Positions 3,403-26,111 of a DNA stretch of 64,000 nt are shown in pieces. The DNA lies in assembly GCA_942492955.1 (NCBI GenBank), contig OW818644.1:1439541-1503540 (forward strand), written 5' to 3'. How positions within the stretch are numbered: the stretch's first letter is position 1; each line of letters begins with the position of its first letter. The notes under the pieces were generated by a model, which saw only the letters and a list, made by a program, of their open reading frames with translations, was not told where the DNA came from and made no database searches. This stretch comes from an uncultured Methanomassiliicoccales archaeon (GTDB lineage: Archaea; Thermoplasmatota; Thermoplasmata; Methanomassiliicoccales; UBA472). The position numbers were made by a program, and so were the translations under genes.

Positions 3403-3780
3403 TTACTTTGCTGCCCTGAGCTTCTTTGCGTTCTCGACTAGGTTGTCCAGTACTGGCTTTCCCTTTCCAGCGTCCAGTATTGCGATGGACGCGGTGGGCT
3501 TTTCCAGTCCGCACGCGTTGCCGAGCTCCGCCTTGGATGCTACGTAAACGTACGGGACGTTGCGCTCCTCGCACAGGAGGGGCATGTGAGCCAGAATCTC
3601 TGGGGGCTGGACGTCCTCAGCCATAACGATAAGGACCGCCTCTCCTCGCTCGACAAGCTTGGTGACCTCATTGGTCCCCTTCTTGATCTTGCCGGTGTCG
3701 CGAGCAAGCTCGACGACCTCGTAGGCCTTGTCCTGCAGTTCTTTTGTCATCTCGAATCTAACGAATGCTGGTTTTGCCAT
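3403..3780 (-). CDS. rpl7ae: 50S ribosomal protein L7Ae
   Basis: KIKKGTNEVTK.VERG.A.LIVMAEDVQPPEI.AH.PLLCEE. SD GAGGTGA upstream. Confidence 0.97.
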   Translation of the reverse strand: MAKPAFVRFEMTKELQDKAYEVVELARDTGKIKKGTNEVTKLVERGEAVLIVMAEDVQPPEILAHMPLLCEERNVPYVYVASKAELGNACGLEKPTASIAILDAGKGKPVLDNLVENAKKLRAAK

Positions 3781-3784
3781 TATT

Positions 3785-3820
3785 TCACCTCATTCGGATG
3801 TTAAACATCCTCATCATTCA
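3785..3820 (-). promoter_or_regulatory. Putative kink-turn element in rpl7ae 5' UTR overlapping the SD
   Basis: Sense reads AUGAUGA-GGAUG-UUUAA-CAUCC-GAAU-GAGGUGA: a C-box-like heptamer, a 5-bp hairpin, then GA next to the SD. Confidence 0.5.
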
Positions 3821-3946
3821 TTGGTAGAATGCGGAATGTGCCAAAGTCATGATGATATTTATAACTTATCGGGGCTAACGATGGGCCTATCCAGCATTGC
3901 TGAATGCCCACATTTTTCGGATGGAATTGGGCTAAATCACCCCCCC

Positions 3947-22759: not shown

Positions 22760-23632
22760 TCAATGTGAAACGCTAAGCTTGACCACGTTCTGATCCTTCT
22801 TTGCTCCGATCGCATCCGCCACCGGTCTGCATTTGGTGCGCATCAAGTAGGCGACCCTGGGATACCTTTGGTCCGAGAGCGACTCGAAGTTCGCCATACC
22901 CTTGGAGATTATCAGGTCGGCTTTCTCCATTTCCGCGCGGAGCGCCTGTCCGATCAGCCCGGTGTCGATGCCGATGGCGAACGACCCCGTGGTCATCGTC
23001 TCATCGAACACTTTATCCATGCCAGTGGTGCTCAGGTCGGCCTCTGTCACGTCGGTCAGTATGGGCTCACCTTTGGCCACGCCGATCACCCTTACCCCCA
23101 TGCCCTTCAGCTCGTTCACGAGCAGGCGGTCGAAAACGATCTCGCCGCAATTGTCCATGAGATAGACGACCGTGCTGCCCTTGACCAGAAGTTCCCTCAT
23201 CTTGTCCACGTCGTTAACGCCCAGACCTTGGCCCACCAAAGAATCGAATTCGCGGCTCAGGTCCTCCGGTTCATCGTAACCGATGCCGAGCCCGAAGTCG
23301 AGCACATTCCCGATGATCGACATCAAGCACGCCGCCTCCAGCCGGTCGGATGAGTTCATGACGAAAGCCTCTGCCCGGGGATAGAGGGACTGAGCGATCT
23401 GGTTGGCCCTCTTCTTCAGTTCGGAGTATGGATCGTTGCTTCCGATGGCGTCATACACCGCGCGGTGCACCTTGGTCGCAATGGACGCAGAATTGACGCC
23501 AGGACGGAATCCGCTGGCCAATATCTTCACGGCGACCGACATCGCCTCGTCCTTGAAGGCCGGATCGACCAGCTCTGTCTCGAATAGGACCCGGTTGAGC
23601 AGACAGGGGACGCAGTCGGCTGCTATTTGCAT
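22760..23632 (-). CDS. ARMT1-like/DUF89 damage-control phosphatase
   Basis: DCVPCL, DPY..LK, IGNVLDFG, DNCGEIVFD, IISKGMANFESL, KC.PVA. Confidence 0.9.
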   Translation of the reverse strand: MQIAADCVPCLLNRVLFETELVDPAFKDEAMSVAVKILASGFRPGVNSASIATKVHRAVYDAIGSNDPYSELKKRANQIAQSLYPRAEAFVMNSSDRLEAACLMSIIGNVLDFGLGIGYDEPEDLSREFDSLVGQGLGVNDVDKMRELLVKGSTVVYLMDNCGEIVFDRLLVNELKGMGVRVIGVAKGEPILTDVTEADLSTTGMDKVFDETMTTGSFAIGIDTGLIGQALRAEMEKADLIISKGMANFESLSDQRYPRVAYLMRTKCRPVADAIGAKKDQNVVKLSVSH

Positions 23633-23718
23633 ACTCCCCCGTAACTTATGAAGCCTGATTAACTCTTCGAACGATCAACAGGAAAAATTGAAAAAATAAA
23701 CGGTTTGGCCATGGGCGT

Positions 23719-23778
23719 TTATTTCTTTCCGCATCCGCAGCCGCACTTCTTGTCCTTCTTTACTTCCTTCTCTGCCAT
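23719..23778 (-). CDS. Unannotated 19-aa microprotein MAEKEVKKDKKCGCGCGKK
   Basis: Strong SD GAGGTGA upstream, TATA-like TTAAAAA near 23826-23832, and T-rich tracts after the stop. Fills an otherwise empty intergenic gap. Confidence 0.7.
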   Translation of the reverse strand: MAEKEVKKDKKCGCGCGKK

Positions 23779-23915
23779 ATTCAAATCACCTCTTTTGGGT
23801 TTAAGTTAGTCACATCTCATCCCCTTTTTAAGCTTACGCCCCGAACCTTCGCTATTTCCGTACCCAGACCGTTTAACGCAATTCTTTAATTAGGCCAGAC
23901 CCGCTATCGAGGGCA

Positions 23916-26111
23916 ATGGCCGAGAGCATCATCCTTCGTGTCGCCAGGGCACATCATCAGTCAGAGGTAGGTTTGGGACGTGCCCGTATCGACGGCAAGA
24001 CCCGCAAGGACCTGGCGGTCGAGGTTGGCGACATCATCGAGATCGTCGGGAAGCGGAGCACTGCCGCAAAGGTGTTCCGGGCCGCCCAGGAGGATGAGGC
24101 CAAGGGCATCATCCGGATCGACGGTATGATCCGTTCGAACGCTGTGGTATCGATCGGGGAGAAGGTCACCGTCAAGAAGGCCGAGTCGCTACCGGCCACA
24201 AGGGTCACGGTCGCCCCGAAGATCCCGTCCGGCAAGCATGTCCGTTTCGGTACCGGCGTAGAGGACCTTTTCCGCAAGGGACTAACGTCAAGACCGCTCG
24301 TCAAGGGCGACGAGATCATAATTCCTAACATCGCGCTCATGGGCGGTTTCCTGCCCTTCACCGTCGTTACGACCGTACCACAGGGCATTGTGGTGGTCGG
24401 GGACCATACCGAGCTCGTGGTCAAGACGGAGACCATCGAGACCAAGGAGACCGTGGCGCCGTCCGTCACCTATGATGACGTGGGCGGACTGGAAGGAGAG
24501 ATGCAGCGCATCCGGGAGATGATCGAGCTCCCGCTGAAGCATCCCGAACTGTTCGACCGCCTAGGGATAGACGCCCCGAAGGGAGTGCTGCTCTATGGGC
24601 CACCAGGCACCGGAAAGACGCTCCTGGCCAAGGCCGTCGCCAATGAGGCAGGGGCGAGCTTCTATTCCATTCAAGGCCCGGAGATCATTTCCAAGTACTA
24701 CGGGCAGAGCGAAGAGAAGCTCCGGGAGAAGTTCGAGGAGGCGGAGAAGAACGCACCCTCCATCGTTTTCATCGACGAGCTGGATTCGATCGCGCCGAAG
24801 CGGGAGGACGTCTCCGGCGAGGTGGAACGACGCGTGGTAGCGCAATTGCTCACGTTGCTGGATGGCATGTCCGGAAGAGGTCAGGTCATCGTTATCGGTG
24901 CCACCAATCGGGAGGACGCCATCGATCCGGCATTGAGGAGACCAGGTCGCTTCGATCGCGAGATAGAGATCGGCGTTCCCTCGAGAGAAGGACGCAGGGA
25001 GATCTTGGAGATCCATACCAGGGGCATGCCGCTGTCGGATGGGTTCGACATCGAGAAGTATGCCAACGCCACCCATGGATTCGTGGGGGCGGATTTGGCG
25101 GCTCTAGCCCGGGAAGCGGCCATGAAATGCCTGGGCCGTTTGGTTCCAGAACTGGATCTGGACAAGGCCATCCCAGTGGCGATCCTGGAAAAGGTCAGGG
25201 TGACTGAACAGGACTTCGACGACGCGCTGAAGGAGGTGGAGCCGAGCGCGATGCGCGAGGTGCTGATAGAGGTGCCGCACGTTACCTGGAACGACGTGGG
25301 GGGGCTCGAGGACGTCAAGACCCAGCTCAAGGAGATGGTGGAGATGCCGATGGAGAGGGGCGACTCCTTCAAGCGCATGGGGATCAGGCCGGCGAGGGGC
25401 ATATTGCTCTACGGACCGCCAGGCACCGGAAAGACGCTTCTGGCCAAGGCCGTCGCCAACGAGTCGAAGGCCAATTTCATATCCATCAAGGGCCCGGAGA
25501 TCATGAGCAAGTGGGTCGGCGAATCAGAGAAAGCGATCCGCCAGGCATTCAAGAAGGCGAAGCAGGTGGCTCCGGCGATCGTGTTCCTGGACGAGATCGA
25601 CGCCATCGCCCCCAGGCGCGGCGGGGGATCGGAGAACGGTGTGACGGAACGTGTCGTCAACCAGCTGCTCACGTCGATTGACGGCATGGAGTCCATGGAG
25701 GGCGTCACCGTGATGGCCGCCTCCAACCGGCCGGACATCATCGACTCGGCGCTTCTCAGGCCGGGACGTTTCGACCGGCTCATCCTGGTCCCGTTGCCGG
25801 ATGACGAGGCACGCAAGAGCATCCTGGGCATCCACACCAAGGCCATGCCTCTGAAGGAAGTTGACCTGGATCGACTGGTCGACGCGACCGAGGGTTACGT
25901 CGGAGCAGACCTGGAGAACCTTTGCCGTGAAGCGGCAATGACCGCCCTGAGAGAAGATCCGGAGGCCGTCTCCGTCGAACAGAGACACTTCGAGAAAGCG
26001 CTGAAGGTCGTGAAAGCCTCCGTCGATAAGGACGCCATGAAGTTCTACGACAACATGGGAAAGGCGCTGGACAAGAAGAGGGCCGGCTGGGATGAAGGGA
26101 TTTACCGGTGA
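23916..26111 (+). CDS. cdc48: CDC48/VAT-family AAA+ ATPase
   Basis: N-domain, two GPPGTGKT Walker A and DELD/DEID Walker B motifs, RPGRFDR twice. Confidence 0.96.

Follow-up and report, generated by a model that had tools for sequence, protein, structure and literature searches.

A 19-codon open reading frame (ORF), here called the microORF, is very likely a microprotein gene that is translated and highly expressed in an uncultured Methanomassiliicoccales archaeon, a judgment that rests on comparison of the sequence with its relatives. It lies in a 64,000-nucleotide (nt) stretch of contig OW818644.1 (assembly GCA_942492955.1; the whole stretch is referred to as the window), between the divergently oriented genes for a DUF89 phosphatase and for cdc48. 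The microORF occupies positions 23778-23719 of the minus strand, with its ATG at 23778-23776 and its TAA at 23721-23719, and its predicted product, MAEKEVKKDKKCGCGCGKK, is a 19-amino acid (aa) peptide containing seven Lys, three acidic residues, three Cys, and three Gly, with neither aromatic residues nor His. The Cys residues (C12, C14, and C16, or about 16% of the peptide) alternate with Gly to form a CGCGCG core, and the net charge is about +4 over the 19 residues. Because Ala occupies position 2, the initiator Met is predicted to be removed to leave an 18-residue peptide. Taken as a whole, the explanation that we tentatively favor is that this is a real, independent microgene whose product would act as an abundant metal buffer or chaperone. 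An initial annotation of the window had described a 19-aa Lys-rich CGCGCG ORF with a Shine-Dalgarno (SD) sequence, a TATA-like TTAAAAA, and a T-tract, placed between DUF89 and cdc48, and every one of these elements is present as it described them.

The microORF sits within a cassette of about 150 nt that comprises a TATA-like box, SD, ORF, and oligo-T run. Its elements are as follows, with the number of invariant alignment columns among 14 distinct cassette sequences:

23823-23832, minus strand: TATA-like box CTTAAAAAGG (TTAAAAA at 23831-23825, about 53 nt 5′ of the ATG); 9 of 10 columns invariant
23785-23795, minus strand: SD block AAAGAGGTGA(T); 10 of 10 columns invariant
23719-23778, minus strand: microORF, consisting of the ATG, 18 sense codons, and TAA; 55 of 60 columns invariant
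23691-23721, minus strand: 3′-end module, consisting of TAAACG (the stop codon and 3 nt), a variable loop of 7-8 nt, and CCAAACCGTTTATTTTTT; post-stop ACG 3 of 3 and CCAAACCGTTTATTTTTT 16 of 18 columns invariant

Archaeal transcription usually starts about 27 nt from the center of the TATA box, and this spacing predicts a start near 23801 and a 5′ untranslated region of about 23 nt. The SD core GAGGTGAT (23792-23785) is 6 nt from the ATG and complements the 3′-end of archaeal 16S rRNA. At the other end, the TAAACG at the stop codon is able to pair with CGTTTA, and the oligo-T run TTTATTTTTT at 23700-23691, 18 nt past the stop, is likely the terminator of the microORF, termination at oligo-T being established archaeal biology. 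The predicted transcription unit spans about 110 nt of the minus strand, from about 23801 to about 23691. A promoter and terminator scan built for bacteria detected nothing, as expected for an archaeon. The strength of the SD is itself unusual. A 7-mer SD followed by ATG occurs at only four positions on both strands of the window, of which L7Ae is the sole annotated gene, and the long SDs of the microORF and L7Ae stand out because no more than 24 of the window's 67 long ORFs are preceded by even a 4-mer SD core. A CxCxC peptide appears just once when the window is translated in six frames, and among the 426 SD-led short ORFs in 0.71 Mb of related DNA, the only ones both Cys-rich and basic are the microORF family and two singletons. 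About 12 nt 5′ of the microORF TATA there is also a CGAAGGTT box (23844-23851, minus strand), with four of eight columns invariant and most of the others nearly so, that is similar to the TCGAAGAG box in the promoter of DUF89 and might serve a shared regulator; considered as a shared regulatory box, CGAAGRNTT / CTTAAAAAGG showed no enrichment elsewhere in the window.

The evidence that this unit is a gene comes from its relatives. These were sampled by the spacer upstream of DUF89, the presence of the microORF not being required, from GTDB genomes, Joint Genome Institute (JGI) metagenomes, and the contigs encoding ten more proteins of the clade and two of outgroups. Searching 5.8 billion proteins with DUF89 returned 25 clusters at 80-100% identity, the next best being at most 61%, and thus a discrete clade; these relatives, from soil and peat, place the host among uncultured Methanomassiliicoccales. 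All 22 clade loci with enough upstream DNA (22/22) contain the microORF with all of its signals, and they supply the 14 distinct cassettes, whose DUF89 proteins are 80-96% identical. The Cys motif and the SD, on whose conservation in related genomes the initial annotation had made its proposal depend, are invariant in all 14, and the comparison strongly supports the stand-alone microprotein gene with complete signals that it had put forward. Two further, independent metagenome contigs (L030 and L255) start at position 1 inside the TGCGGNTGYGGATGCGG codon repeat of the microORF, which may reflect an assembly break at a short imperfect repeat or may be a coincidence.

Conservation in the cassette is concentrated in these elements, which stand as islands between freely varying segments. 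The number of invariant columns drops to 8 of 27 between TATA and SD, 1 of 7 between SD and ATG, 1 of 8 in the post-stop loop, and 0 of 22 after the T-tract. Conservation sets in exactly at the ATG, and the SD-to-ATG spacer and the post-stop loop differ in length between cassettes, while the ORF has no indels. The five variable sites in the ORF are synonymous third positions of K4 (AAG/AAA), V6 (GTA/GTC/GTT), D9 (GAC/GAT), and C14 (TGC/TGT), together with V6G, the only amino acid variant of the peptide, which occurs in a single genome (L025, CAWDCQ010000025.1). Of six substitution events, five are synonymous, a bias with P=0.0006-0.005 when the transition/transversion ratio is set between 1 and 5. 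Among the six frames, that of the microORF is alone in retaining its start codon, stop codon, and SD in every genome. Open antisense frames are to be expected opposite a purine-rich strand and were seen, and an antisense or overlapping ORF was rejected as the cause of the conservation: antisense starts are not conserved, with a stop in L004, and an overlapping ORF in a sense frame (MRKEIN...) differs in length between genomes and continues through the terminator. From the conserved start, stop, and ribosome-binding site, the absence of indels, and the synonymous bias, we conclude that the microORF is in all likelihood translated. The same alignment points to strong purifying selection across the 19 residues, the CGCGCG core among them, and the comparison shows the cassette to be an apparently autonomous unit of promoter, SD, ORF, and terminator, predicted to be transcribed and translated independently of its neighbors. 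In L025, the start of DUF89, about 90 nt past the microORF stop, contains one extra base (GAGCTGCGT rather than the GA-CTGCGT found elsewhere) and no long DUF89 ORF was found there, so that this metagenome-assembled genome (MAG) has either a frameshift or a long-read indel error.

The nucleotide sequence of the microORF is far more conserved than the peptide requires. Among seven genomes, the degenerate codons at which the amino acid is invariant vary at 151 of 182 positions in DUF89 and 505 of 632 in cdc48 (about 80%), as compared to 3 of 18 in the microORF; per-amino-acid backgrounds taken from the flanking genes predict 12.0 variable codons in place of the 3 observed (P=9.5e-7). The three Gly codons of the microORF never vary, whereas 96% of the invariant Gly codons in the neighbors do. 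Such an excess could be expected of a small regulatory or dual-function RNA in which a conserved 60-nt core acts by base pairing and the ORF is incidental or secondary. At about 110 nt, and with a promoter and terminator to itself, the predicted unit is of a kind with small RNAs (sRNAs), and sRNAs that encode small proteins reportedly exist in Methanosarcina mazei, according to one preprint. RNA-level constraint was indeed the first reading of the frozen sites, in view of codons that bulk genes seldom use, and it was displaced by ribosomal-protein controls. Relative to the OY968769 genome, the pairwise synonymous difference of the microORF (0.06) falls with that of L7Ae (0.07), S28e (0.14), L24e (0.17), and NDK (0.19), as against 0.42-0.48 for ordinary genes (aIF5B, DUF89, NTP-transferase, cdc48, and EamA), which range from 0.38 to 0.49 across distant genome comparisons. 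Codon usage agrees. GCA, GTA, and GGA are rare in bulk genes, ribosomal-protein genes favor GCA, GTA, AAG, and GAC more than the bulk does, and the codons of the microORF have a log-likelihood ratio of +2.6 bits toward ribosomal-protein usage, being typical under that usage and at P=0.02 under bulk usage. We therefore attribute the synonymous freezing to strong translational selection, since L7Ae, S28e, and L24e show both the same preferences and the same freezing. Translational selection on codons acts only on translated, highly expressed genes, and the substitution and codon patterns over these 18 codons imply that the microORF is probably one of them.

No RNA-level feature was found that would explain the frozen sites. 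An Rfam search of the cassette region and the whole window returned only two tRNAs elsewhere and no family at the microORF, the putative transcript is predicted to be less stable than 189 of 200 shuffled versions (z=+1.48), and the covariation term from RNAalifold on the cassettes is about 0; on the folding comparison and the zero covariation, RNA structure was rejected as the cause. A regulatory RNA with an incidental ORF would thus have to do without structure, covariation, or a known family, and it is at odds with conservation that begins at the ATG, with an SD that is invariant next to a spacer that is free, and with substitutions that are synonymous. Moreover, L7Ae is equally frozen, so that translational selection suffices. 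We regard the sRNA explanation as quite improbable, although the microORF may have some additional RNA-level role besides translation.

The genes on either side of the cassette and their promoters define where it lies:

22760-23632, minus strand: DUF89/ARMT1-like phosphatase gene (Pfam E=1e-62), in the same orientation as the microORF, which is 86-89 nt upstream
23657-23670, minus strand: promoter-like box TCGAAGAGTTAATC of DUF89 itself, about 25 nt 5′ of the DUF89 ATG (23632); conserved in the clade and outside the microgene
23879-23894, plus strand: promoter-like box CAATTCTTTAATTAGG of cdc48, 25-32 nt 5′ of the cdc48 ATG (23916), with the conserved block CTGGCCTAATTAAAGAATTG; the other boundary of the inserted cassette
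23916-26111, plus strand: cdc48

Both cdc48 and DUF89 are probably leaderless, because their TATA-like boxes are only about 25-32 nt from their ATGs. In all outgroups, defined by DUF89 identity of at most 61%, the divergent cdc48/DUF89 arrangement is kept, the spacer measuring no more than about 130-140 nt and containing no microORF; those checked were Methanomassiliicoccaceae L006-L012 and L032-L034 and, closest to the clade at 58-60% DUF89 identity, L256 and L257. The sister family, which has no microORF, carries a related CGAAAGnnTAATC box 5′ of DUF89, and the DUF89 promoter is therefore older than the cassette. The promoter-like box being present in both groups, the cassette of about 150 nt therefore appears to have been inserted, or to have arisen, between two pre-existing promoters in the ancestor of the clade.

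This history bears on whether the microORF could be a cis-acting leader, in which pausing at the Cys codons would sense Cys and modulate read-through of the T-tract into DUF89, NTP-transferase, and EamA. The geometry is suggestive, with a short ORF oriented as DUF89 and just upstream of it, three Cys codons near its end, and the terminator-like T-tract 18 nt past its stop. A possible precedent exists in the polycysteine leaders of mycobacteria, likewise very short Cys-rich ORFs upstream of a gene in the same orientation, which are leaderless, contain consecutive Cys codons, open Cys-metabolic operons as their first cistron, and work by masking the next ribosome-binding site within an RNA duplex (bioRxiv 10.1101/834739). 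The microORF is SD-led rather than leaderless, its Cys codons alternate with Gly, no stable duplex is predicted, and a T-tract and the older DUF89 promoter precede the next gene, on which grounds an attenuator of the polycysteine type was rejected. For a leader in general, the downstream genes are not Cys-metabolic, DUF89 retains a promoter that predates the cassette, and a sensor would not need conservation of the whole peptide or codon optimization like that of a ribosomal protein. Of the explanations weighed here, this is the one that we consider least probable.

If the microORF is a gene, it is one that has escaped notice. Trypsin would break the peptide into small pieces, a possible reason that the product has gone unseen. 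It has never been called by gene callers, being invisible to annotation pipelines because it is only 19 codons long, and public calls instead lay spurious ORFs of 69-111 aa over the cassette (L244 545-754, L245 903-1157, L246 703-957, and L248 903-1238). Pfam and NCBIfam gave no match to the peptide at E<=10, in a scan that has low power for about 20 aa; exact look-up of its 21-aa form with a TTG start found it absent from a collection of 15 billion proteins; and no sequence match to a described metallothionein family was obtained. A strict degenerate K-CGCGCG-KK pattern, run against 185,579 species genomes, recovered six clade species and four other matches (Lachnospiraceae, two Methylococcaceae, and Leptolyngbyaceae) that are not short ORFs with start codons and look like chance, and viral contigs held no copy of the motif.

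How such a peptide would act can be considered from its core. In an extended chain, the three thiols of C12, C14, and C16 would lie on one side and the Gly spacers on the other, where they would give the backbone freedom, creating a compact site of thiolates, perhaps joined by backbone amides, for a metal ion of soft or borderline character. Solubility would come from the Lys-rich flanks, which could also dock the peptide onto anionic partners. A C-x-C motif beside Lys is a metallothionein hallmark. Three Cys being too few to complete a cluster, the peptide would probably bind metal as a dimer or oligomer. The distal Ni of acetyl-CoA synthase is held by Cys-Gly-Cys through two thiolates and two backbone amides in square-planar N2S2 geometry (PMC8910529), and the microORF peptide contains two overlapping units of this kind, C12-G13-C14 and C14-G15-C16. 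The peptide would thus serve as an abundant cytoplasmic buffer or chaperone for Ni, Co, Zn, or Cu. Among the functional proposals of the initial annotation, which had also named a redox or sulfur carrier and a modified-peptide precursor, we prefer metal binding as chemically reasonable; granted that the microprotein is translated, this mechanism strikes us as a possibility to be held with some reserve.

Several observations weigh against an abundant metal binder. Three Cys are few for a metallothionein, and metallothioneins are usually inducible and normally lack codon constraint of ribosomal-protein grade. We scanned 20 neighboring proteins, about 10 kb on each side, and found glycosyltransferases, an ACT protein, EamA, NTP-transferase, a PRC-barrel protein, TPR proteins, Elp3, ABC transporters, a GHMP kinase, an HTH protein, and a pyridine-nucleotide-disulfide oxidoreductase; no Feo component, metal transporter, metalloregulator, or metal chaperone was among them. 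Confinement of the microORF to one genus- or family-level clade means that its function is not general to methanogens, the likeness of its core to CGCGCG peptides in other lineages (described below) is of low complexity and may be convergent or coincidental, and a strongly basic, abundant peptide suits a ribosome- or nucleic acid-associated role equally well.

In that last role, the peptide would be a lineage-specific accessory ribosomal or chromatin microprotein whose Lys residues bind RNA or DNA and whose row of Cys joins a partner or a second copy through a disulfide or in a common Zn or Fe-S site. This accounts more naturally for the constraint and codon usage of ribosomal-protein type, and it is in keeping with the charge of the peptide and with the microORF and L7Ae having the strongest SDs in the window. 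The very small basic ribosomal proteins eL41 and bL36, the latter of which binds Zn via Cys, offer a possible analogy. On the other hand, the microORF is unlinked to ribosomal-protein or chromatin gene clusters, restriction to one clade would be unusual for a component of the ribosome, acidic residues break up the Lys run, and the family searches gave no homology to known ribosomal proteins. We consider this role, the chief rival of the metal buffer, unlikely, but it deserves to be weighed seriously.

The Cys-Gly repeats also recall the chemistry of glutathione and phytochelatin, and the microORF could supply, by ribosomal synthesis, a low-molecular-weight thiol that acts as a (Cys-Gly)3 redox buffer or as a carrier of persulfide or sulfur in an anaerobe without those compounds. 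The high abundance implied by the codon pattern would fit a buffer, and a deltaproteobacterial analogue of the microORF (described below) is found on either side of a DsrE-like sulfur-relay gene that neighbors an ArsR-family regulator; that analogue, however, may not be homologous. Methanogens already have large thiol pools in coenzyme M and coenzyme B, and no thiol-disulfide reductase or sulfurtransferase is linked to the microORF, the nearest pyridine-nucleotide-disulfide oxidoreductase being about 13 kb off with no sign of linkage. A ribosomal thiol is in our view improbable. Cys/Gly repeats are typical as well of the azole cores of ribosomally synthesized and post-translationally modified peptides (RiPPs), such as microcin B17, and methanogens encode YcaO, so that the microORF might encode a RiPP precursor whose Cys-Gly units become thiazolines or thiazoles through enzymes encoded elsewhere in the genome. 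On the absence of an adjacent maturase, the initial annotation was correct. The neighbors within about 10 kb include no YcaO, cyclodehydratase, dehydrogenase, peptide-modifying radical-SAM enzyme, protease, or exporter, and there the sole radical-SAM protein is Elp3-like, and the lack of a maturase, protease, or exporter weakens the RiPP explanation. Only 11 residues precede the core, which is short for a recognition leader, and codon constraint like that of ribosomal proteins would be unexpected for the precursor of a secondary metabolite. A RiPP origin is very improbable.

CGCGCG microORFs may not be limited to this clade. A loose genome scan for an SD, an ATG, and CGCGCG within 6-15 codons gave at least 120 matches, mostly noise from GC-rich bacteria, and among the matches listed were, after filtering, stand-alone SD-led Lys-rich CGCGCG microORFs in Bathyarchaeia (L078), Iainarchaeum (L080), and Deltaproteobacteria (L119 and L147). 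These encode peptides of 24-39 aa with a CGCGCG(C) core and Lys-rich flanks, and they have promoter-like and terminator-like signals of their own. The Bathyarchaeia peptide is MSTKKGGCGCGCGGGKKKEEKKTK and that of Iainarchaeum is MAAKKGAKKKSKSSSSCGCGCGGTMDE, the latter from a gene with a TATA box and a hairpin plus T-tract; exact look-up found both absent from the protein collection. The deltaproteobacterial family, MAEQKVPCGCGCGC(I/V)PQK..., has 39 aa and three copies in two species:

L119 5007-5126, minus strand: 39-aa gene with promoter-like box, strong SD, and terminator hairpin
L119 5732-5851, minus strand: 39-aa gene with the same three signals
L147 5747-5866, minus strand: 39-aa gene with the same three signals

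The two paralogues in L119 flank a DsrE/DsrF-like gene and adjoin an ArsR-family HTH gene, and the deltaproteobacterial peptides are in the public protein collection without a name. They start with MAEQKV, as compared to MAEKEV in the microORF, and their genes vary freely at synonymous Cys and Gly sites, in contrast to the frozen Gly codons of the microORF. For all of these analogues, the flanks cannot be aligned with the microORF beyond the core and the genomic contexts differ, and homology is not demonstrable because the peptide is too short. Nevertheless, recurrence of the CGCGCG motif suggests a function at the level of the peptide. In Clostridia MAGs (L118, L159, and L059), there are also peptides of 47-53 aa with CGCGC and NNN repeats, a hydrophobic segment, and a CCCC tail (e.g., MMDERCGCGCNNNCGCGCGCNNGLFGGGNCCCIWIILIIIVLCCCCN), which have no Pfam or NCBIfam match and look like a separate family of Cys-rich membrane microproteins.

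The window contains one further feature of note in the leader of L7Ae (gene at 3403-3780). Just 5′ of its strong SD, at 3781-3835 on the minus strand, a hairpin GGAUGUUUAACAUCC lies between UGAUGA and GAAUGA, with a minimum free energy of -11.3 kcal/mol (z=-1.5) and no Rfam match. It resembles a k-turn or k-loop, and L7Ae could regulate its own mRNA through it.

Were an abundant metal-handling role for the microORF peptide to hold, these methane producers would have an abundant component that every annotation pipeline has missed, and peptides that handle metals or thiols would reach Archaea in a minimal form that is cheap to synthesize and test. The approach is of wider use, in that an island of conservation combined with synonymous constraint of ribosomal-protein grade can certify microgenes in uncultured organisms and even rank their expression, and the result suggests that CGCGCG microproteins form a larger set in anaerobes. 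A bolder form of the proposal, which we judge rather unlikely, is that no smaller genetically encoded metal chaperone or buffer is known than this (Cys-Gly)3 peptide, which would be the first of its kind in Archaea and would match a ribosomal protein in abundance, with square-planar thiolate-amide sites for Ni(II) or Co that would supply the large demand of the nickel and corrinoid enzymes of a methylotrophic methanogen in metal-poor peat, and that it belongs to a recurrent, unrecognized class of Lys-rich CGCGCG peptides in anaerobic archaea and bacteria that gene callers miss.

Among known systems, the closest in composition are the smallest metallothioneins, the 25-aa copper metallothionein of Neurospora crassa and the mycobacterial MymT, which are likewise very small, lack aromatics and His, have C-x-C beside Lys and a CGC element, and use thiolates for metals, as would be expected of the microORF peptide. 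The microORF peptide has the low molecular weight, C-x-C motifs, and absence of aromatics that define the metallothionein type, with a Cys content of 16% at the low end. Metallothioneins differ in having seven or more Cys; with three, a single chain of the microORF peptide cannot build a metal-thiolate cluster. The microORF is moreover archaeal, has a constitutive-looking codon constraint of ribosomal-protein grade, and has no metalloregulator nearby; we know of no archaeal metallothionein that has been established. In chemistry, the nearest parallel is the Ni site of acetyl-CoA synthase and its synthetic CGC mimics, the identical tripeptide being present twice in the microORF peptide, whose host is a methanogen with a high demand for Ni and Co. 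The motif of the synthase is part of a large enzyme and its A-cluster (PMC8910529), as opposed to a free peptide for which metal binding would be a matter of analogy. PF12669, the only Pfam family with even a faint match, and that to the Iainarchaeum analogue (E=1.1), shares the plan of a very small protein in which a basic stretch leads into a tail rich in Cys and Gly. Members of PF12669 have an N-terminal membrane helix and a Cx3-5Cx2-3Cx6-8C motif and are found downstream of or fused to feoB, mainly in Firmicutes and Bacteroidetes (PMC8749426). The microORF peptide (MAEKEVKKDKK...) has no hydrophobic segment, has CxCxC with three Cys, and has no Feo among its 20 neighbors, and membership was rejected. 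The stand-alone Cys-cluster small proteins of M. mazei, such as sORF_06, are also encoded by intergenic, unannotated ORFs, contain clustered conserved Cys, and have a proposed metal or Fe-S role (PMC11456600). The M. mazei protein has four Cys, and its translation has been proven by ribosome profiling (Ribo-seq) and peptidomics (PMC11456600), as compared to the three Cys and 19 aa of the predicted microORF product. The microORF falls outside every described family and is best described as a minimal archaeal Cys-rich microprotein gene, with a possible part in the handling of metals or thiols.

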